57,216 nt of DNA from NCBI GenBank assembly GCA_964424265.1, contig CAYRHX010000006.1, positions 1 to 57,216 on the forward strand, given 5' to 3'. Below the pieces are notes generated by a model. It did not search any database. It saw nothing but the letters and a program-made list of their open reading frames with translations, and was not told the origin of the DNA. Positions within the stretch are counted from its first letter, which is position 1. Each line of letters opens with the position of its first letter. This document shows positions 605 to 9,216 of the stretch, one piece after another. Origin of the DNA: an uncultured Candidatus Saccharibacteria bacterium. Its GTDB lineage: Bacteria; Patescibacteriota; Minisyncoccia; Phycocordibacterales; UBA2100. The translations under genes were made by a program, and so were the position numbers.

Positions 605-1546
605 TCATCCCGCAAGGTCCCATTCGACGAGCGCGAAGTTTTCGGAATCAAATCCCGATGAAAGAGCTGCTTTGAGCCACTGTGTTTGCGACAGTTGCAC
701 GCGGTCTTTCTTTGAACGTTTCAGCTCGATGAACAAAATACTGTCGTCCTTCCACGCGAGCACATCCCAGCATCCGCCGCTTTTTCCGGTCTTCGCTCGC
801 AGGGATTCGACGACTCGGTTCTGTGCTTCGGGGAGTTCAACGGGTGTGGCGACATCGGGCAACCCGACCCGATACTTCCGTCGGTAGCTGTCCACCCAAA
901 CGCCGTTCCATCCGTGCGACTGGAACAAACACAAAACCGCAAGCTCGGCGAATACCGGCTCGCCGTTCCAGTCGATGACCGCTTTGCCGTTATAGTCGGT
1001 CGGCACAGGTGCGCCCTCCCACTGCTTGAACTGAAGGAGATATTTCTGGACGAGGGTGTGTCCACCGGATGGGAGTGTAAAAATCTCATTGTCCACTCGG
1101 TGCGGAAATATTTCGAGGTCACTTCTATAAAAACTACGTGGAATGATGAGTCGGTGCTTCTTGAACGAATTACATCGCTTGCACGCGAGCGTCAGATTTT
1201 TTATGTGATTGGACCCAAAATCCTGTGCCGCGACTTTTTCCGATGAAACACGCGCAATGTGTCTGAGTTTTTTGTTGAGCTCGTTCGTCGCAAGCGGGAC
1301 GATATGGTCGGGCTCCCAAATTTCTTCCTTGCTGCAATCCGGATGAATGTGGAGCTGGCATTTTCCGCCATGCGTCAGTATCAGCCCTGCGAGCAGTTTT
1401 TTCTTCGTCTTATTAAACTCCCATCGCTTGATGGCTTGGTGTCTGAAGTCGAAGTGTTCAGAAAATTCATCCTCCAATCTTTTTGCATCACCATCGGCGA
1501 GCAGATTGGCGAAGAACTCCCGATCTTCGGGATATTCGAATTGCAT
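605..1546 (-). CDS. Two-nuclease fusion: N-terminal HNH endonuclease domain plus C-terminal VRR-NUC / PD-(D/E)xK-type nuclease domain
   Basis: 313-aa ORF. HNH signature: C-x-L-H...PDHIVPLATNE...NLTLACKRCNSFKKH. The C-terminal GCWDVLAWKDDSILFIELKRSKKDRVQLSQTQWLKAAL fits the D...E-x-K...Q..W layout of VRR-NUC domains. Confidence 0.75.
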   Translation of the reverse strand: MQFEYPEDREFFANLLADGDAKRLEDEFSEHFDFRHQAIKRWEFNKTKKKLLAGLILTHGGKCQLHIHPDCSKEEIWEPDHIVPLATNELNKKLRHIARVSSEKVAAQDFGSNHIKNLTLACKRCNSFKKHRLIIPRSFYRSDLEIFPHRVDNEIFTLPSGGHTLVQKYLLQFKQWEGAPVPTDYNGKAVIDWNGEPVFAELAVLCLFQSHGWNGVWVDSYRRKYRVGLPDVATPVELPEAQNRVVESLRAKTGKSGGCWDVLAWKDDSILFIELKRSKKDRVQLSQTQWLKAALSSGFDSENFALVEWDLAG

Positions 1547-2402: not shown

Positions 2403-2633
2403 GTTCCGTAAGGGGTGACGCGAAACCGCCCTTATGCGGGGCGGTCGCGTAACACCGTCTCAGGTTCGTGCGGGGGCAGTAATAATCGAACGGAGTCGGT
2501 CGCCCTTGTACCATTATGGCTTAAGATATGAAAGAATTCGAGGTCTTTTCAGGGTCCCCGCTACGACGCTTGCTTCCTATACGGTTATCTTATATAATCT
2601 CCCATACTTGAAATATGAGATAGCTTACCCGGT

Positions 2634-3689
2634 ATGACCAATCGTCTGAACAACCGCCTAAAGAATTTGCCAGAAAATATCTGGTCACTCGTCAATAAAA
2701 TCGACCTCTTCAAAGGACAATGGATCGGCGGTGCGCAACTGAATCCGCATGCGCTCGGCCGCCTGAAGCGCTCTGTGCTCATAACATCGACTGGTGCCTC
2801 GACGCGCATTGAGGGCGCAGGGCTGTCCGACGAAGACGTGGAGAAATTAATGCGCGGACTCTCGATGCAAAAATTTGCCGATCGGGATAAACAGGAAGTG
2901 AAAGGATACTACGAACTACTCGAAAACGTGTTTAATTCCTGGAAACACATTCCTTTTACCGAAAGCACTATCAAGCACTTTCATAGCGAGCTTCTGAAAT
3001 ATGTGAAGAAAGACGAGCCGCATCGGGGTGAATACAAGAAAAAAGAGAACAAGGTAATGATGATTGACGGGACGGGTAAATCGGTTGGCACTCTTTTCGA
3101 TACGACACCCGCATATCTGACGCCGAAAGAGATGCAAGAACTTGTCGAGTGGGCACAGGAGGAACTTGCGCTTCAAAAAATACACCCGCTCATCATCATC
3201 GGAAATTTTCTGGTGGAATTCCTCAACATCCACCCGTTCGAAGACGGTAACGGGCGTATCTCTCGTGTGCTAACAAATCTTCTAATGTTGCGGTCAGGGT
3301 ATGCATATGTGCCATATGTATCGCATGAGAAGTTGGTCGAAGATAACAAAGCAGAATACTACGTGGCACTACGGAGAAGTCAAAAAACATTCAAATCGGA
3401 TAAAGAAACAATTTGGCCATGGCTGGAATTTTTTCTGAACACGTGCGTGACACAAGCAGAGCAGGCAATTGAACTGCTTTCCCAGGAAAATATCGAGCGG
3501 CTCCTCTCTCCGAAACAGCTCGTTGTATGGCAATATCTTGAGCACATGCCTGAAGCGACGCCGGGGGAGATCGCAAGAGCGACAAAAGTGGCACGTCCTA
3601 CGGTATCGCAAGCACTCGATACGCTTATGCGTCTGAAGAAGGTGGAACGGATCGGCCAAGGCAGGACGACGCGGTATCGAAAGATATAA
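2634..3689 (+). CDS. Fic-family protein (AMPylase-type Fic domain) with C-terminal winged-HTH
   Basis: 351 aa. Canonical Fic motif HPFEDGNGRISR (nt ~3231-3266). The C-terminal PGEIARATKVARPTVSQALDTLMRLKKVERIGQGRTTRY is a typical wHTH. Confidence 0.9.
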   Translation: MTNRLNNRLKNLPENIWSLVNKIDLFKGQWIGGAQLNPHALGRLKRSVLITSTGASTRIEGAGLSDEDVEKLMRGLSMQKFADRDKQEVKGYYELLENVFNSWKHIPFTESTIKHFHSELLKYVKKDEPHRGEYKKKENKVMMIDGTGKSVGTLFDTTPAYLTPKEMQELVEWAQEELALQKIHPLIIIGNFLVEFLNIHPFEDGNGRISRVLTNLLMLRSGYAYVPYVSHEKLVEDNKAEYYVALRRSQKTFKSDKETIWPWLEFFLNTCVTQAEQAIELLSQENIERLLSPKQLVVWQYLEHMPEATPGEIARATKVARPTVSQALDTLMRLKKVERIGQGRTTRYRKI

Positions 3690-3692
3690 GGT

Positions 3693-5804
3693 ATGTACTC
3701 ACGAGAAGAACGGGTCGAGATTTTCAGATCCCTCTTCAAAGGGCGCGAGGACGTGTTTGCTCGACGATGGGAAAAGTGGCAAGGCGGAGTTTCCGGTTAT
3801 TCGCCCTTATATACCGATCAGGATAAGGAATCATATACGCCACTCTCCATTGACTGGATCGAGAAACACCTGACCGGTGCGGCAACACTCGGAGTATACC
3901 CACTCCTTAACGACAATACGTCGAATTTTATAGTGGCAGATTTTGATGGAAAAAGCTGGCAAAGCGTAGTCAGGAATTTCCTTGTCGTCTGTGCACGGCA
4001 TACGCTACCTGTTGCAATCGAACGATCACGTTCGGGAAACGGTGCCCATGTCTGGTGCTTTTTCGACGCTCCATACCCGGCAAGCAAAAGTAGACGGGTA
4101 TTCCTTTCTCTTCTCCGCGGGGCGGGATGCATAGACCCTTTGGAGAAAAACGAGGGCTTCGACCGTCTGTTTCCGAATCAGGATTACTTGTCCGGGAAAG
4201 GACTCGGCAATCTTATTGCGCTCCCTCTTCAGGGTGAATCACGAAGAAATGGCAATACGGTTTTCATTGATCCTGACAAAAGTTTTGAGGCGCATGCAGA
4301 CCAATGGCAATACTTGCATGATCTGCAACGAACGAGCGCGGAGTTTCTCGATGGTTTGTACAAATATACCTATCCTGATCAGGATGAAGCAGTCCCAAAG
4401 AAGAAAGTGCACGCTCATTTCGGGAAGACCATTATCCTCACGCTCGATAATGCTATTTCAATTTCAAAGACGAATCTGCCGCCACATCTCGTCTCGTACT
4501 TGCGTGAGGAACTCAATATTCTCAACATCGGCTATGTGGTAAAGGAACGCGCGGGTTTGCCGACCTACGGCGAAAAGAAATTCATCAAAACACTCGACCA
4601 GACAGATGACTCAATTCTCGTACCGCGTGGTTTTCTTACGAAGCTGTATGCGTGGCTCGACGAACGGAACATCAAATACCGCGTTATAGATACTCGACTG
4701 ACACTTGGTGCAGTGGGTCTCAAATCCACATACACCATGCTCCCCTATCAAGAGTCTACCGTCGCAGCCTTCGACGCGTCAGAACAAGGCATCCTCGTAG
4801 CCCCAGCTGGAGCGGGAAAAACATTCATGGGCCTTGAGATCATCGCGCGTAAGAGGCAGCCCGCGATTATTCTGACGCACCGTAGACAAATATACGATCA
4901 GTGGCTCGAAAGGGTTGAGCAAGGTTTCGGAATCCCGAAAACCAAAATAGGGCAAATTGGCGGGGTGAAGAAAAATCCGGGTCAACTAATAACAATCGCC
5001 ATGGTGCAAACACTTGCGCGCATGAAAGATATCAGTGACATCGCTACGCGTTTTGGCACTGTACTCATAGACGAGTGTCATCATATGCCATCGAGGATGT
5101 TCCGCGATGTGGTTTCGAAATTTCCTGCACGCTATCGATTCGGATTGACTGCCACTCCGTCGCGCAAATACAACGACGAAAAATTGATCGGCGCATATCT
5201 GGGCGAAATCGTGCATACGATCGACAAGGCGCAGGTGCAAAACATTACTGCGCAATCGCACGATGCGACCCTTGTGAGTGACGCTGTCGTCGTGCGGACA
5301 ACGAGCCTCGCAACGCCATTCGGCACCTCGTCTCGTGATTTCCAACTGATGTCGAAAGTGCTTTCGAGCGATGCGAATCGGAATGCGCTTATTGCCGAAG
5401 ATGTTGCGCAGGAAGCGAACAGTGGCAAGAAGTGTCTTGTGCTCACCGAACGTAAAGAACATGCCGAGATGCTGCGTGCATATCTGCGTAAAGATTTTGA
5501 AACTATCATGTTCTCTGGAGATCTGTCTTTTAGACAGCGTTCGTTCGCGCTCCAGAAAATCAAGGGCGGAAGATTCCGGATTTTGATAGCGACCGGTCAG
5601 ATTTTGGGAGAAGGAGCTGATATCGCCGACCTCGAAGTACTTTTCCTCGCGTTTCCAGTTTCATTTCACGGCAAGCTCGCACAATACGTCGGCCGTATCA
5701 AACGCGAAAGCGGACCCAAAAAGGTCTACGACTATCGAGACGCAGCCGTACCAATTCTCGAAAAACTTTGGAAGAAACGTGCAGCGTACTACCGAAAAAA
5801 ATGA
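3693..5804 (+). CDS. Fusion of an archaeo-eukaryotic primase (AEP/PrimPol-like) N-terminal domain with a superfamily-2 DEAD/DEAH-type helicase
   Basis: 703 aa. The ATG lies 3 nt after the Fic stop. N-terminal REDVFARRWEK...GVYPLLNDNTSNFIVADFDG...ERSRSGNGAHVWCFF is AEP-like. Helicase motifs: APAGAGKT (Walker A), LIDECHH (motif II), GLTATP (motif III), and a C-terminal helicase lobe (ILIATGQILGEGADI...AQYVGR). Confidence 0.85.
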   Translation: MYSREERVEIFRSLFKGREDVFARRWEKWQGGVSGYSPLYTDQDKESYTPLSIDWIEKHLTGAATLGVYPLLNDNTSNFIVADFDGKSWQSVVRNFLVVCARHTLPVAIERSRSGNGAHVWCFFDAPYPASKSRRVFLSLLRGAGCIDPLEKNEGFDRLFPNQDYLSGKGLGNLIALPLQGESRRNGNTVFIDPDKSFEAHADQWQYLHDLQRTSAEFLDGLYKYTYPDQDEAVPKKKVHAHFGKTIILTLDNAISISKTNLPPHLVSYLREELNILNIGYVVKERAGLPTYGEKKFIKTLDQTDDSILVPRGFLTKLYAWLDERNIKYRVIDTRLTLGAVGLKSTYTMLPYQESTVAAFDASEQGILVAPAGAGKTFMGLEIIARKRQPAIILTHRRQIYDQWLERVEQGFGIPKTKIGQIGGVKKNPGQLITIAMVQTLARMKDISDIATRFGTVLIDECHHMPSRMFRDVVSKFPARYRFGLTATPSRKYNDEKLIGAYLGEIVHTIDKAQVQNITAQSHDATLVSDAVVVRTTSLATPFGTSSRDFQLMSKVLSSDANRNALIAEDVAQEANSGKKCLVLTERKEHAEMLRAYLRKDFETIMFSGDLSFRQRSFALQKIKGGRFRILIATGQILGEGADIADLEVLFLAFPVSFHGKLAQYVGRIKRESGPKKVYDYRDAAVPILEKLWKKRAAYYRKK

Positions 5805-5856: not shown

Positions 5857-6069
5857 ATGGAGGTACTTTGTTACTACGACACGAAGAAAAACCGGAAGCG
5901 CGACTTTACCAGGTATCAAGTTTCCCACGATGGCTCTTGGTACATATTCGAAGAGCTTAAATGTCATAATTTTGGCAACGAGACAGCTTGTCACGAAATG
6001 CATCGGCAGGAATTTGAAACAGAACAGGAAGCGCGTGCGGTTTACGAAAGCTGTCTGGGCGACAAATAA
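5857..6069 (+). CDS. Hypothetical 70-aa protein
   Basis: ORF only (MEVLCYYDTKKNRKRDFTRYQVSHDGSWYIFEEL...). It lies in the gap between two convergent helicase genes. No recognisable motif. Confidence 0.3.
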   Translation: MEVLCYYDTKKNRKRDFTRYQVSHDGSWYIFEELKCHNFGNETACHEMHRQEFETEQEARAVYESCLGDK

Positions 6070-6090: not shown

Positions 6091-7794
6091 TCAATTTTCG
6101 ACATCATTGTCATACAACATCCGCGCAAGACGCAGATCGTCATAGGAATAGGTGTTGTCGAGTTTCTCGAAGACGGGCGTGAGACGCTCAAGGCCGAGTT
6201 CTTTGAACGCGGCGTGAATCGTCGGGAGAGACTGCTTGAGCGATTGTGAGACGAGCGGCTCGATGTCGGAACGACTGAGGCGACCTTTTGAGAAGAGGTC
6301 GTAGACATGCGATGAGATGGTTGTTTCGACAAGCCCGCGCGTTTCCGCGATCTCGCGGATTGATTTGCCACTTTTAAGAAGGGCGAATGTCGCTTCGAGG
6401 GTGGAGATACGAACCTCTTTCTTTTTCGGCCCCATTCCCGGCTTACCGCCGCATGCGTGGATAAAGTCGTTGTGCATTATTAAAAGTTCTGCGGGATTGA
6501 TTGCATTGAATTTTTCACGCGCTTTGTCCGATTGTTGGCGAAACTCTGTATCCTTCCCTTGAACTTCGGGGTGTATCTCGAGTGCGCGAGCGTTGAGGCC
6601 AGCGAGCGAGAGCCCAGCGAGCGTGCGTACGCGCGAAAGAGCGACGTAGCCCTGCCCGTACTCAAACGTATCGGAAAGATCCATATGCGCAGCATCGAGC
6701 GACATTCCCTGACTCTTGTGCACCGTCATCGCCCACGCGAGGCGAAGGGGAATTTGAATGATGCGAGCAAGAACGCGTCCGCTGTCTTCGATGTGCCACT
6801 CATCCGGTTCTGCATAGATCGTTCTTCCAGCATTCGTCTTTACGATAGGGTACCCTGTTTCGGAAAATCCGGTAACAGTACCAAGCGTACCGTTCACATA
6901 GCGATGTGTTGTGATGTCATTCTTCGTGAACATAATGCGCGCACCGATCTTGAGCGAAAGAATCTCCGGTGAGAGACATCCGCGCTTCAGTGCGGCGACC
7001 AATTTATCCGGACCGCGGCTTGCCATCTCGAATGTTTTCACTTTGCCCACAAGTTTCGCTAGTTCTGCATCGTTGATCGCGTTGACATCAGCATTGTGCG
7101 AGTAGAGTTGCGTGATTCCATCCTTTGGTTTTGGTGCATAACGTGTGCGCAAGAGTTGACGATGCGGTTCAACGACAATTGCCCGCCGTACCGCCGAGAG
7201 AAATTCCAGAAATACGACATCTTCCTGCCGATGCTGCTCCGAGAGGTAGCAGACCAGTGGATTGAGTGTATTCCAAGCCGGGGAGAAAAATGCGAATTGC
7301 TCTCTGCTTTCCGACTTGACCAGGGATATTTGCTCTTCTTCGCCGTCTTCTCGTTTACTTACAGGCGGCAACTGGAAAAAATCGCCAACTAGAACGACTT
7401 GCAAACCGCCAAAAGGTCCGGGGTTGCGTCGTATCTCGCGACACACCGCTTCGATCATCGAGAAAGTCCGCGCCGAGAGCATCGAGACTTCGTCGATTAT
7501 GAGAATTCGCGCATTGCCGACCCGCCGCACGACATTTCTGTTTTGCGCGATGCGGTCGAGGTCATATGTCGTAAGATCGCGTCGTATGCCGATACCGCTC
7601 CACGAATGGATCGTGAATCCCCCGATATGGGTAGCGGCGATACCCGTCGACGCAGTAATTGCGGGCTCTATGCCGCAAGAGCGCAGATGCGAAACGTACT
7701 GATTAATCGTGTGCGTCTTTCCGCTTCCTGGTTCACCGGTAAGAAATACATTTGCGCCGGTTTTCAGAATCGCAAGCGCTTCGTCTTGAGTCAT
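6091..7794 (-). CDS. PIF1/RecD-like SF1 DNA helicase with C-terminal tandem HTH repeats
   Basis: 567 aa. N-terminal FLTGEPGSGKTH (Walker A), ILIIDEVSML (Walker B), VLVGDFFQLPPV, and the C-terminal helicase lobe WAMTVHKSQGMSLD...YVALSRV, all typical of PIF1-like helicases. The last ~110 aa contain two HTH-like repeats (SIREIAETRGLVETTISSHVYDL...). Confidence 0.85.
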   Translation of the reverse strand: MTQDEALAILKTGANVFLTGEPGSGKTHTINQYVSHLRSCGIEPAITASTGIAATHIGGFTIHSWSGIGIRRDLTTYDLDRIAQNRNVVRRVGNARILIIDEVSMLSARTFSMIEAVCREIRRNPGPFGGLQVVLVGDFFQLPPVSKREDGEEEQISLVKSESREQFAFFSPAWNTLNPLVCYLSEQHRQEDVVFLEFLSAVRRAIVVEPHRQLLRTRYAPKPKDGITQLYSHNADVNAINDAELAKLVGKVKTFEMASRGPDKLVAALKRGCLSPEILSLKIGARIMFTKNDITTHRYVNGTLGTVTGFSETGYPIVKTNAGRTIYAEPDEWHIEDSGRVLARIIQIPLRLAWAMTVHKSQGMSLDAAHMDLSDTFEYGQGYVALSRVRTLAGLSLAGLNARALEIHPEVQGKDTEFRQQSDKAREKFNAINPAELLIMHNDFIHACGGKPGMGPKKKEVRISTLEATFALLKSGKSIREIAETRGLVETTISSHVYDLFSKGRLSRSDIEPLVSQSLKQSLPTIHAAFKELGLERLTPVFEKLDNTYSYDDLRLARMLYDNDVEN

Positions 7795-7930
7795 TTGAGC
7801 ATTCTAAGATTAATCGTCATTTTCACAAAGTTCGAATCCTTTTCGTATTCGGACTTTTTACGTGGACACGGTCGCCCTACCGTCCTTGTTTTAATAGGAA
7901 TCGGTCGCGGTACACGCGTGCCCTAGACTT

Positions 7931-8307: not shown

Positions 8308-9216
8308 ATGTCGATGGATCGCATCGAACCTAGGAAAGCGGGGGAACAGATCCCTTTCGACCTTCGCGCATTTGCTCACGCTTCGCAACTAATCCGTGAG
8401 CGTTTTGAGGTTGGTCCGTCAATCGATCGACTCGCATACCACAATCGTGAGCATACCGAAGGCGTCGTACGTCGCGCAAGAAAGATTGCTGAAGCCATGG
8501 ATCTCCCTGCGCGGGAAAAGATATTGGTACAGATCGCGGCTTCTTTCCACGATACGGTGCAAAGGTGGGAGCTTACTCAAAAAGAAGACGGAGCTGCATT
8601 GCGTAAGCGGCAAACTACGACCAACGAACTCGCAAGTGCTGACGAAGCTGTTGCATGGATGAAAAAGCAGGCAGACGCACGCTTCACTAACGAAGAGTGT
8701 GCAATCGTGCACGCCGCTATTCGCGTGACGATCCCGGTGTGGAACGAGGTATATGGGACGGTCTACCAAGATGCGCTTAGGCCTGAGAGTCATCCGGTCG
8801 TGCGAGCTGTAGCGCTTGCAGACATTGGATCGTCGGGAATGGAGCCCTCCGTATTTCAAAAGGAAGGAGATTGGCTTTTTGCCGAACAAGAAATCGACAT
8901 CATCAAGGCGATTCGAAATGCACAAAGCTCTGAAGACATAAGTCCCGAAAAGCAGACGCAGTATCTCGAAAGATACAGAGCGTGGATAAAATCTCAAATT
9001 GGATTTGCGCAGGGACGGCAGGCGCTCTTTGAGGATGAGCTTGGAGATCTTGACGAGGCGAGTACGGATCGTGTCCGGCATCTCTTTGCTCACTTTGCCG
9101 AAGGCATAGAGGCAGCGGAAGAAAATTCGAAGATCGCGGAAAAATGTACTTTTGAGCAAATGGCCCGTCGCCTTGTTCCCACCGCGTTTTCGGCGGGAGA
9201 TAGGGAGTCGCAGTAA
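8308..9216 (+). CDS. HD-domain (metal-dependent phosphohydrolase superfamily) protein
   Basis: 302 aa. YHNREHTEGV ... AASFHDTVQ gives the H...HD pattern. The rest is not recognisable. Confidence 0.6.
   Translation: MSMDRIEPRKAGEQIPFDLRAFAHASQLIRERFEVGPSIDRLAYHNREHTEGVVRRARKIAEAMDLPAREKILVQIAASFHDTVQRWELTQKEDGAALRKRQTTTNELASADEAVAWMKKQADARFTNEECAIVHAAIRVTIPVWNEVYGTVYQDALRPESHPVVRAVALADIGSSGMEPSVFQKEGDWLFAEQEIDIIKAIRNAQSSEDISPEKQTQYLERYRAWIKSQIGFAQGRQALFEDELGDLDEASTDRVRHLFAHFAEGIEAAEENSKIAEKCTFEQMARRLVPTAFSAGDRESQ

Follow-up and report, generated by a model that had tools for sequence, protein, structure and literature searches.

The locus described here raises the question of whether a Fic protein and a large primase-helicase, encoded one directly behind the other, act together, and if so to what end. 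It lies in the window, by which we mean the whole stretch of 57,216 nucleotides that was analysed, from a contig (CAYRHX010000006.1) of an uncultured Candidatus Saccharibacteria bacterium. The original prediction had seen in the two genes a candidate conflict system, in which the primase-helicase would be the sensor and Fic the effector.

The two proteins and their control region

The pair consists of a gene for a Fic-wHTH protein (2634..3689, forward strand, 351 aa), followed by one for an AEP-TOTE primase/XPB-like SF2 helicase (3693..5804, forward strand, 703 aa). The junction reads TAA ggt ATG, i.e. a gap of 3 nt, and a scan found no promoter- or terminator-like site in it. Coordinates, spacing and motifs of the two ORFs are as first described, and the catalytic motifs are all intact in both proteins. 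The features of the locus are as follows.

2412..2456, forward: GC-rich hairpin (inverted repeat I1/I2), 3' of an upstream 74-aa ORF
2570..2621, forward: candidate promoter/operator of the operon (sequence and conservation)
2634..3689, forward: Fic-wHTH, class II (self-inhibited) AMP-transferase type, 351 aa (Pfam, PADLOC, PDB match)
2799..2816, forward: inhibitory-helix motif STRIEG ([S/T]xxxE[G/N]), aa 56-61 (sequence)
3231..3266, forward: Fic catalytic motif HPFEDGNGRISR, aa 200-211, fitting HxFx[D/E]GNGRxxR
3504..3680, forward: C-terminal wHTH of Fic, aa ~291-349 (Pfam)
3693..5804, forward: AEP-TOTE PrimPol fused to XPB-like SF2 helicase, 703 aa (Pfam, PDB matches, fold)
3708..4349, forward: AEP (primase-polymerase) domain, aa 6-219 (PF22548, E=1.4e-72; fold)
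3936-3950, forward: AEP motif I, ADFDG (sequence)
4032-4055, forward: AEP motif II, SGNGAHVW (sequence)
4158-4184, forward: AEP motif III, FDRLFPNQD (sequence)
4431..4697, forward: alpha/beta linker domain, aa 247-335 (AF2 model)
4734..5705, forward: SF2 helicase core (ResIII, Helicase_C, PDB match, motifs)
4806-4823, 5070-5084 and 5148-5159, forward: HD1 motifs, Walker A AGAGKT, DECHH and TAT (motif reading)
5682-5696, forward: HD2 motif QYVGR (motif reading)
5857..6069, forward: 70-aa Cys/His-containing ORF downstream of the helicase, no Pfam family

Pfam bears out the domain calls for both proteins, with matches to Fic and wHTH, AEP-TOTE, ResIII and Helicase_C. The Fic domain is matched at E=9.5e-17, and the wHTH (aa 300-341) scores 27.8 bits with MarR_2 (cut-off 27) and 23.1 bits with HTH_IclR (cut-off 22), while the Pfam SoFic-like_C model has no match in this protein. 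The closest solved structure is 8uqu (E=2.9e-33). The inhibitory-helix motif is kept in 29/29 helicase-linked Fic proteins examined, and a Fic with its own inhibitory helix needs no separate antitoxin. We have also considered a toxin-antitoxin pair with the helicase as the antitoxin; it was rejected, as Fic is self-inhibited and close Fic homologues occur without a downstream helicase.

In the second protein, the AEP domain scores 244 bits against PF22548 (cut-off 27), which confirms the membership of the AEP-TOTE family that had been proposed. Motifs I-III (DxD, sxH, hD) are intact, and residues D83/D85, H119 and D157 show no variation among 22 homologues. All motifs quoted earlier for this protein were found, and ADFDG, SGNGAHVW, AGAGKT, DECHH, TAT and QYVGR are invariant across the 22 homologues (47-82% identity). 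The modelled AEP fold matches the CAPP Prim-Pol structures 7nqd/7nqe with a TM of 0.80-0.83. The helicase part is matched by ResIII (E=8e-25) and Helicase_C (E=1e-9), carries SF2 motifs I, II, III and VI, and has XPB as its top PDB match by both sequence and fold. In a Foldseek alignment, ~490 columns of the C-terminal part correspond to archaeal XPB over its whole length (~437 aa), and in the model the linker (aa 247-335) would sit where archaeal XPB has its N-terminal (damage-recognition) domain.

The candidate promoter has a −35 element TTGCTT (2570-2575), a 17-nt spacer and a −10 element TATAAT (2593-2598). An inverted repeat with the cores ATCTC (2597-2601) and GAGAT (2617-2621) is a candidate operator, assigned by conservation: the promoter/operator block is kept 5' of Fic in 14 loci in which the more distal upstream DNA is unalignable. 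At locus L091 the repeat is a perfect one of 9 bp (AATCTCATA N9 TATGAGATT), and another Fic lineage has a different half-site (AATCG.../ATCGGATA). The operator sequence thus co-varies with the lineage of the wHTH, which is the region that diverges most between Fic lineages. This conserved, co-varying operator suggests that the helicase is probably expressed under Fic autoregulation. A generic scan detected no promoter of the helicase's own; the same scan also missed the Fic promoter, because its −35 element matches at just 3/6. Further upstream, the hairpin is the probable boundary of the preceding transcription unit, as judged from its sequence. The 70-aa ORF has homologues (phmmer) only in the nearest relatives (L146, L092/L139, L091 and L094); it is possibly an accessory gene of the cassette, with uncertain membership.

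The surroundings had been called a nuclease-rich island, and this description holds only in part. One neighbour (605..1546, reverse strand) has HNH and VRR-NUC matches, both of them below the Pfam cut-offs, and the others are two small membrane-like ORFs, the 70-aa ORF and a PIF1-HTH_40 helicase. The locus sits among housekeeping genes, and no R-M, CRISPR or other known system was found immediately beside the pair.

Recurrence of the pair and exchange of the upstream gene

The expectation that Fic and AEP-helicase genes would be recurrently adjacent was upheld by a survey based on 120 non-redundant loci, in which the pairing is also specific in position. Fic is directly upstream (−1) on the same strand in 21/111 non-redundant loci, compared to 4/829 other slots (odds ratio 48, Fisher p=5e-17, a value that overstates independence because the loci are phylogenetically related). 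The neighbouring genes were called in a crude way, by a greedy ORF finder using table 11, and loci of UGA-recoding lineages (e.g. Gracilibacteria, L037) were possibly miscalled. In the clade of the window, 13 of the 17 members have Fic upstream, mostly at a gap of 3 or −4 nt and with unrelated flanks, and relatives of 60-84% identity retain the 3-nt junction despite these flanks. A gammaproteobacterial MAG and a Mucilaginibacter likewise have Fic in front of the helicase. In ultra-small (CPR) bacteria, Fic and the primase-helicase constitute a conserved operon of two genes, which is transferred between genomes as one unit.

The helicase family extends much further. A search limited to 8,000 candidates gave at least 7,859 matching clusters (90% identity, E<=1e-10), and the range covers CPR bacteria, Bacteroidota, Proteobacteria and large plasmids, with 98 plasmids carrying a copy. 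Most of the 120 top entries listed, and of the ~200 loci retrieved (587 genome-collection matches), represent the full AEP-XPB fusion, and many of the helicase genes have no toxin neighbour.

It is important to note that the slot occupied by Fic is not reserved for it. Among the best 80 of at least 587 genome matches, the Pfam counts for the upstream neighbour are AbiEii 9, Fic 6, RhuM 4, HipA 3 and HepT 1. In other lineages the slot holds AbiEi/AbiEii (at 62% helicase identity), HigBA, RhuM, HipA, HepT or AlbA_2, and on an Acinetobacter plasmid HigB and an HTH regulator are directly upstream of the helicase. The Fic and helicase phylogenies are incongruent, with the breakpoint exactly at the gene junction: at locus L085 the helicase has 83% identity and Fic 44%, and at L055 the values are 46% and 72%, respectively. 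These comparisons indicate that whole promoter-operator-Fic cassettes are swapped in front of a conserved helicase, and the Fic gene is probably an exchangeable "toxin plus promoter" front end. The neighbours across homologous loci include type I R-M genes, integrases, SMODS/SAVED, a methylase and HsdS.

Possible functions of the operon

The reading that we favour, and to which we give about an even chance, is that the operon is a mobile and modular two-arm conflict cassette, directed against phages or plasmids. It would be composed of known parts in a new arrangement, with a function that is predicted from the sequences. One arm would be protein AMPylation by Fic and the other the DNA-acting PrimPol-helicase. 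SoFic has been reported to bind its own promoter and to AMPylate EF-Tu (bioRxiv 10.64898/2026.07.09.737422); by analogy, the Fic-wHTH would repress the shared promoter and thereby tie helicase expression to Fic. Infection or stress would then relieve the autoinhibition of Fic, and the released enzyme could AMPylate a core target, possibly EF-Tu as for SoFic, such that growth stops. The XPB-like translocase would open or track DNA on which the PrimPol could synthesise, and their action would interfere with the invading replicon. The arms would be complementary and loosely coupled, through regulation, back-up or addiction and with no specific sensor-effector complex, like the Fic/Doc or RhuM toxins beside restriction enzymes. 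Against this reading, the Fic family is very common in CPR genomes, often without the helicase, so that Fic may have a housekeeping regulatory role; the position of the window locus among housekeeping genes and the lack of a PADLOC model for the full-length helicase also speak against it.

The dedicated sensor/effector pair, in which the AEP-helicase would sense or process foreign DNA and directly activate an obligate toxic Fic by contact or through a synthesised nucleic-acid ligand, is unlikely in the light of these results. The tightly conserved 3-nt junction and the strict gene order are in its favour, as is the fact that a self-inhibited Fic requires an activating signal. The activity of other Fic-HTH enzymes does depend on DNA binding or oligomeric state (PMC10628234; bioRxiv 10.64898/2026.07.09.737422), and in CbFic2 it is DNA binding via the HTH that switches the activity (PMC10628234). 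However, the two proteins do not co-diverge, since Fic alleles at 44% identity pair with helicases at 83% and the breakpoint falls at the junction. Moreover, AbiE, HigBA, RhuM and HipA take the same slot, many helicases have no toxin neighbour, and the helicase is absent next to 2/4 sampled Fic homologues. The part of the original prediction that concerned a dedicated pair is therefore not supported.

Another option that we consider unlikely is DNA repair or damage tolerance, in which the PrimPol/XPB-like enzyme would reprime or repair host DNA and the Fic-wHTH would be a stress-responsive regulator. XPB and PrimPol are repair enzymes, and there are precedents in eukaryotic PrimPol and in the MGE-derived AgaPP, a PrimPol of mobile-element origin acting with a partner helicase in repair and replication (PMC11724360). 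In ~14 CPR contexts, an HTH_40 helicase of the RecQ or PIF1 type is encoded no more than a few kb away, and ligase, Pol I and glycosylase genes are frequent in CPR flanks. Against this, the distribution is patchy and horizontally mobile, including the 98 plasmids, and the upstream partners are toxin or abortive-infection modules and not repair regulators. R-M and CBASS-like genes and integrases are found among the neighbours, and the complete catalytic site argues that Fic is more than a repressor.

A variant in which the primase-helicase is the sensing arm for many HTH-toxin front ends is quite unlikely. On foreign or stalled DNA the helicase would remodel the DNA or synthesise a short nucleic acid, which would titrate the Fic-wHTH off its operator and alter its oligomeric state. 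The operon would thereby be derepressed and Fic switched from an inhibited or de-AMPylating form to the AMPylating one, shutting down translation. One helicase could in this way serve Fic, AbiE, HigBA, RhuM and HipA through their shared DNA-bound autorepression.

It is decidedly improbable that the two are functionally unrelated genes, brought together in one defence island or operon through hitch-hiking or chance. Each gene is found without the other, SoFic acts as a single gene (bioRxiv 10.1101/2022.05.11.491447) and defence genes generally cluster, but position, strand and 3-nt spacing are strict, the pair is kept through changes of context, the junction survives replacement of the Fic allele, and the helicase lacks a detectable promoter of its own.

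A replication module of an integrated mobile element, with the Fic-wHTH as its regulator or addiction gene, is the least probable, and very improbable: large serine recombinases one to two genes upstream of Fic (L085/L089 and L139/L174) or ~3.7 kb downstream of the helicase (L170), 11 full-length matches in IMG/VR contigs, and plasmid copies near tra genes and recombinase trios speak for it, but the full-length fusion occurs in 0/50,697 phage genomes, the helicase is a monomeric SF2 of the XPB type, the protein having neither a hexameric replicative helicase (SF3, SF4 or DUF927) nor a PriCT domain, the window island yielded no integrase or att repeat and neither rep nor par genes, and the plasmid copies examined are not beside replicon genes, so that the clustering with phage or plasmid replicative primase-helicases near origins or partition genes that had been named as an alternative was not found.

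If the two-arm cassette is indeed defensive, a very large helicase family, with members in CPR bacteria, Bacteroidota and Proteobacteria and on large plasmids, would gain a function, and a polymerase-based DNA-level mechanism would be added to prokaryotic immunity. Few immune modules have been documented as common in Patescibacteria, a group with a poorly known defence repertoire, and the cassette would then be one of them. An interchangeable, self-regulated toxin front end would exemplify how an enzyme that acts on DNA as a first line can be coupled to an arm for dormancy or suicide. Were the function repair instead, it would still be unusual for a PrimPol fused to an XPB-type translocase to be controlled by a repressor that is an AMP-transferase.

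Comparison with known systems

No paper or PADLOC model describing the Fic/AEP-helicase pair was found, and PADLOC has no model for the full-length helicase. For Fic, comparison with the defence catalogue supports the suggested likeness to single-gene defence proteins: the PADLOC model of SoFic, a stand-alone defence gene of Shewanella oneidensis (bioRxiv 10.1101/2022.05.11.491447), matches nearly the full length at E=3.3e-45. Both proteins are of class II and have the inhibitory [S/T]xxxE[G/N] helix, the motif HPFx[D/E]GNGRxxR and a C-terminal wHTH, and the binding of SoFic to its own promoter parallels the conserved candidate operator. The relationship is, however, a remote one (PDB 3eqx at E=7.6e-6, core only), and the orthology test failed (NCBIfam equivalog NF046030, 46.6 bits vs a cut-off of 550). 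The small gene downstream of SoFic is its reported antitoxin AS1 (PMC12249575), whereas the Fic considered here is translationally coupled to the large primase-helicase gene.

The AEP domain belongs to a Pfam family (PF22548) that is named after the TOTE conflict systems (TPR, OB, TBP, Effector; Aravind, Iyer and Burroughs 2022, as quoted in PMC12458937). With TOTE defined from this second-hand quotation, the locus is not such a system, because the partners are absent. No TPR, OB-fold (CSD/S1) or TBP was found among the window ORFs scanned (605..1546 to 8308..9216) or in the 20 kb around the helicase. The same holds for the 71 upstream and 68 downstream neighbours, as judged from their top families, at the 80 top-ranked loci of a genome survey with at least 587 matches. 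Unlike in TOTE, the partner slot holds toxin-antitoxin or abortive-infection modules.

The closest solved structure to the AEP domain is CAPP, the CRISPR-associated Prim-Pol from Marinitoga (PDB 7nqd, 7nqe, 7nqf, 7p9j; 26-28% identity). PADLOC's model for Cas-associated PrimPol is hit at E=7e-61, while NCBIfam PrimPol_Msp gives 94 bits against a cut-off of 200. CAPP differs in that the AEP domain here is fused to an XPB-like helicase, and no cas genes or CRISPR array were found beside the pair among the called genes. For aa ~220-703, the best sequence and fold matches are archaeal XPB (with Bax1) and eukaryotic XPB/Rad25/Ssl2, which appear to share an N-terminal alpha/beta domain before two RecA-like lobes. 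The identity is only 15-18%, the NCBIfam XPB equivalog gives 79 bits vs a cut-off of 610, there is no Bax1-like nuclease neighbour, and the primase is fused N-terminally.

At the level of the operon, one parallel is AbiE, the AbiEi/AbiEii type IV toxin-antitoxin abortive-infection system (PMC3985639). It differs from Fic in protein fold and is absent from the window, but this autoregulated module of a wHTH and a nucleotidyl-transferase toxin takes the exact Fic slot upstream of homologous helicases. The other parallel is with type I R-M operons, where Fic/Doc and RhuM occupy equivalent slots in a "multilevel defence" together with PrrC (PMC3710099). The DNA-acting partner differs, being here a PrimPol/XPB-like helicase without a nuclease or methylase domain. 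In the R-M operons as here, a protein- or RNA-targeting toxin stands beside an NTP-dependent DNA-tracking enzyme, with Fic and RhuM interchangeable.

The Fic protein and the AEP-helicase

The pair consists of the following two genes:

2634..3689, + strand, Fic-wHTH, ORF of 351 aa
3693..5804, + strand, AEP-helicase, ORF of 703 aa

The two ORFs are separated by 3 bases (…AAG ATA TAA ggt ATG…). The Fic protein matches the Pfam family Fic (E=9.5e-17) and has the catalytic motif HPFEDGNGRISR (aa 200-211) and, as its class-II inhibitory motif, STRIEG (aa 56-61). Its C-terminus is a winged helix, for which MarR_2 and HTH_IclR each exceed the Pfam cut-offs, and the PADLOC model of SoFic covers the protein almost end to end (E=3.3e-45). 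In the helicase protein, aa 6-219 match AEP-TOTE (PF22548, E=1.4e-72), followed by ResIII and Helicase_C. All three AEP motifs and the SF2 motifs I, II, III and VI are present, and their residues are invariant across 22 homologues of 47-82% identity. The original prediction thus described both sequences correctly in every detail, and the HMM annotation it called for finds Fic, AEP-TOTE, ResIII and Helicase_C.

In their sources, the closest homologues are labelled Candidatus Kaiserbacteria, Uhrbacteria or Paceibacterota, and the window accordingly belongs most likely to a Patescibacteria (CPR) chromosome. In sequence, archaeal XPBII/XPB and eukaryotic XPB/Rad25 are the nearest matches to the helicase half, and the AEP half is nearest to the Prim-Pol domain of CRISPR-associated Prim-Pol (CAPP, 7nqd/7nqf). 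An AlphaFold2 model of the protein (mean pLDDT 81) aligns with whole archaeal XPB (6p4o/6p4f) over ca 490 columns at E~1e-21, and its AEP domain agrees in fold with CAPP at a TM of 0.80-0.83. The model has an additional alpha/beta domain, aa 247-335, at the position of the XPB N-terminal domain. The protein falls far under the NCBIfam equivalog cut-offs for both XPB and CAPP; it is like both and an orthologue of neither.

Several members of the family, found at surveyed loci (denoted L), deviate from this plan. At L022-L081 (Bacteroidota and others; e.g. L050:5983-8964 and L029:5983-9369), many of the Bacteroidota homologues reach 990-1,140 aa, and their C-terminal extension of 280-420 aa gave no Pfam match, nor did the 375-aa N-terminal extension of L108:3888-7154. 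In the Kaiserbacteria MAG at L005:3192-7791, two ORFs encode the AEP domain (240 aa) and the helicase (435 aa) separately, and 3 nt upstream lies a SWIM-zinc-finger SNF2 helicase (822 aa) instead of Fic. Proteins of 1,205 aa and 1,405 aa, both without a Pfam match, lie directly 5' of the AEP-helicase at L016:2372-5986 (a Liptonbacteria MAG) and L021:1682-5896 (a Saccharicrinis MAG), respectively.

Recurrence of the pair and exchange of its first gene

Recurrence was surveyed in 80 species-level genome loci from an alignment-based scan (at least 587 matches, of which the 80 best were retained) and in 79 metagenome loci of closer relatives, the latter survey being weighted to close relatives, together with several look-ups with precomputed Pfam annotation. 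Removal of near-identical copies left 120 full-length loci. Neighbouring genes were called by a simple longest-ORF greedy procedure (table 11) and labelled by phmmer, which remote family members can escape.

The same-strand slot directly 5' of the helicase is occupied by Fic in 21 of the 111 loci with a called upstream gene, compared to 4 of the 829 remaining slots up to six genes away (Fisher p=5e-17, odds ratio 48; the loci are interrelated, and the p value overstates their independence). In the clade of the window (at least 62% identity), Fic is upstream in 13 of 17 non-redundant members, mostly with a gap of exactly 3 nt or a 4-nt overlap, while the flanks are wholly different: DNA ligase/GatC, serine recombinase, SpoU/DoxX, RelB/YafQ or RNase Y/HU. 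Fic also takes this position in four further clades of the helicase tree, for example in a gammaproteobacterial MAG (L013, 4-nt overlap) and a Mucilaginibacter genome (L034). The fixed slot, the recurrence across clades and the unlike flanks indicate that the pair is real, recurrent and transferred as a unit. The adjacency, whose absence from other genomes was to count against the original prediction, is therefore recurrent.

The view of Fic and the helicase as an exclusive pair, on the other hand, does not hold, because other genes fill the slot, Fic also occurs without the helicase, and the two proteins do not co-diverge. In the genome survey (71 upstream neighbours), the most frequent Pfam families are AbiEii 9, Fic 6, RhuM 4, HipA_C 3, DUF4143/AAA_14 3 and HATPase_c_4/AlbA_2 3; HepT occurs once, and AbiEi lies one gene farther upstream than the AbiEii slot. 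A CPR (Patescibacteria) relative with 62% helicase identity has AbiEi/AbiEii exactly in the Fic slot, at a 6-nt gap, and on an Acinetobacter baumannii plasmid HigB and an HTH regulator lie 25 nt 5' of the helicase. On the downstream side, AlbA_2/HATPase_c_4 proteins, DUF6088, integrases and YhcG nucleases are among the neighbours; several loci have type I R-M subunits nearby, and many helicase loci have no toxin-like neighbour. The Fic family is far more abundant in CPR than the helicase (more than 120 clusters at >=74% identity). When four Fic homologues were picked solely by the length of their contig, two had an AEP-TOTE helicase directly downstream (gaps of 12 and 2 nt), one of them beside SMODS/SAVED genes, and two did not.

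As to divergence, L085 shares 83% identity with the window in the helicase and 44% in Fic, whereas L055 shares 46% and 72%, respectively. In such discordant pairs Fic is divergent over its whole length to the stop codon, the wHTH being the most divergent part (25-30%), while identity in the helicase is 85-88% right from the start of the protein. Whole Fic alleles have thus been replaced, with the gene junction as the breakpoint.

In one CPR genome (L228-L230, 1-3660), the Fic/AEP-helicase pair adjoins divergent SMODS-like and SAVED-domain genes (CBASS-like), and is thus located in a recognisable defence island.

Candidate promoter region and neighbouring genes

Upstream of Fic, the following candidate promoter and operator elements are found:

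2570-2575, 5' of Fic, -35 element TTGCTT, 17 nt before the -10 element
2593-2598, 5' of Fic, -10 element TATAAT
2597-2601 and 2617-2621, inverted-repeat cores ATCTC and GAGAT, beginning inside the -10 element and extending past it

This block is kept 5' of Fic in 14 loci with a window-type Fic, where the DNA farther upstream is unalignable; two of these (L225 and L227) are without the helicase. At L091, the repeat is a perfect 9-bp palindrome, AATCTCATA N9 TATGAGATT. In a second Fic lineage, whose wHTH differs strongly, the block is built alike but with other half-sites (TTGACA-17-TAcAAT within AATCGnATAcAATCgGATA). The conservation suggests that the block is an operator, and the co-variation with the DNA-binding domain of Fic is what autoregulation would lead one to expect. 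The predicted operator is also in line with the reported binding of SoFic to its own promoter (bioRxiv 10.64898/2026.07.09.737422). A search of the Fic-helicase junction found no promoter-like or terminator-like site, and the expression of the helicase is therefore probably governed by the Fic-controlled promoter.

The gene order in the window is an HNH/VRR-NUC-like gene, two small ORFs, Fic, AEP-helicase, a 70-aa ORF, a convergent PIF1-HTH_40 helicase, tRNA-Ser and tRNA-Glu, with ordinary genes up to 10 kb on each side (Sua5, HhH-GPD, GTP cyclohydrolase I, DAG kinase, M23 peptidase, a response regulator and a cation efflux protein). Of the nuclease-rich island originally described, one nuclease-like neighbour is left, 605..1546 (-). 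Its 313-aa product has an HNH-like motif at aa ~111-133 and a C-terminal VRR-NUC/Hjc-like PD-(D/E)xK region at aa ~250-302, both under the Pfam cut-offs, and appears from these motifs to be a double-nuclease fusion. Among the non-redundant loci, phmmer labelled only the window's own copy beside a Fic-helicase pair.

The 70-aa ORF, 5857..6069 (+), directly 3' of the helicase, contains Cys and His residues, matches no Pfam family and is kept only in the nearest relatives (L091, L092/L139, L094 and L146; E 1e-28 to 1e-39). A small anti-SoFic antitoxin gene has been reported 3' of SoFic elsewhere; an AS1-like antitoxin was considered for this ORF and set aside in view of its limited conservation and the missing family match.

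The PIF1-HTH_40 helicase gene lies at 6091..7794 (-). In about 14 independent CPR contexts, and almost never in non-CPR loci, a helicase with a C-terminal HTH_40, either PIF1 (SF1) or RecQ-HRDC (SF2), is found no farther than ca 3.5 kb from the AEP-helicase:

PIF1-type: window, L084, L085, L091, L096, L109, L116, L148, L149
RecQ-type: L092/L139/L174, L101, L168, L226, L018

At L101, there is a 4-nt overlap between the RecQ gene and the AEP-helicase stop. The nearness of the HTH_40 helicases could be due to synteny or to a hot spot of insertion, or they could be a third component. The PIF1 helicase was left out of the proposed system, as position and strand vary and RecQ takes its place at other loci.

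A 15-nt motif, GGAGTCGGTCGCCCT, occurs at 2492-2506, 7864-7878 and 7897-7911 (copies 87% and 80% identical), in intergenic positions flanking the Fic...PIF1 block on both sides, 5.4 kb apart; it may be a chance recurrence, a boundary motif or a regulatory motif. The search of the window for an integrase and for a direct repeat of the tRNA-Ser 3' end found neither, only short 14-23-nt repeats of doubtful meaning.

Proposed function and relation to known systems

The locus is most likely a modular two-arm cassette with a putative function. In the first arm, Fic-wHTH would be a self-inhibited AMP-transferase that also acts as the operon repressor, and relief of the inhibition would, by analogy with SoFic, lead to AMPylation of EF-Tu and translation arrest. 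SoFic acts against phages as a single gene, AMPylates EF-Tu and is toxic if unrestrained (bioRxiv 10.1101/2022.05.11.491447, bioRxiv 10.64898/2026.07.09.737422, PMC12249575), and in a related Fic-HTH enzyme DNA binding switches the activity (PMC10628234). In the second arm, the PrimPol/XPB-like protein would open DNA or track along it and carry out synthesis on it. Since the front end is swappable (Fic alleles, AbiE, HigBA, RhuM, HipA), a generic coupling, through shared regulation, back-up or locus stabilisation, is more likely than a specific protein interface.

A DNA repair module is a less likely alternative, favoured by the relatives of the enzyme, which are repair proteins, by the RecQ- or PIF1-type HTH_40 helicases a few kb away in about 14 CPR contexts, and by the precedent of an MGE-derived PrimPol that acts in repair with a partner helicase (PMC11724360). 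However, toxin partners predominate and the neighbours are of the defence-island type, which argues against a purely housekeeping role.

The evidence goes against a replication module of a mobile element, the outcome that a link to phage or plasmid replication primase-helicases was to signal. The full fusion is found in 0 of 50,697 phage genomes, where the matches are helicase-only, and matches in a viral structure library cover essentially the helicase half only, one 792-aa uncultured-phage protein being aligned over 766 columns. Furthermore, the helicase is XPB-type and not of the replicative hexamer type, and element boundaries were not found in the window. Other facts favour mobility rather than replication. 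Full-length homologues of ca 33% identity are present on 98 plasmids, in some cases in the vicinity of tra genes, DUF736 and tyrosine-recombinase trios; a large serine recombinase is encoded 1-2 genes 5' of Fic in two close relatives and ca 3.7 kb 3' of the helicase in a third (L170); and eleven IMG/VR contigs carry a full-length homologue. The "viral" label of one such contig, from a close relative, was set aside, as the surrounding region of 14 kb contains a methylase, a serine recombinase, RecQ, HsdS and, of phage type, only a sub-threshold terminase-like match, which is insufficient as evidence for a phage.

Two large conjugative plasmids of alphaproteobacteria (L172 and L173) carry distant homologues (ca 33% identity, 812-852 aa) flanked by DUF736 genes, tyrosine-recombinase pairs or trios and, in one case, traA/C/D/G, unlike the toxin-linked chromosomal loci.

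Chance co-location of the two genes is contradicted by the fixed position, strand and spacing, and by a junction that survives Fic allele replacement.

The two-arm cassette can finally be compared with known systems. The original prediction linked the AEP-helicase architecture to TOTE-type loci; the AEP domain indeed belongs to the TOTE-named family (PF22548), but the TPR, OB and TBP components of the TOTE definition, as quoted in PMC12458937, are absent from the neighbours scanned, and by that definition the pair is not filed as a TOTE system. No mention of AEP-TOTE or PF22548 was found in the open literature. The Thermus ICETh2 Ppol-Hel and AgaPP were considered as possible relatives and set aside. 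The Fic protein is SoFic-like without being an orthologue of SoFic. Neither the whole helicase nor the pair is represented by a PADLOC v2 model, and no published description of a Fic + AEP-helicase system was found, in line with the original expectation that the pair has no characterised precedent. The cassette resembles the arrangement in which Fic/Doc, RhuM and PrrC toxins lie beside type I restriction enzymes (PMC3710099). Its parts are known and defence-associated, and they are combined in an arrangement that is conserved, modular and so far undescribed, with a putative function.
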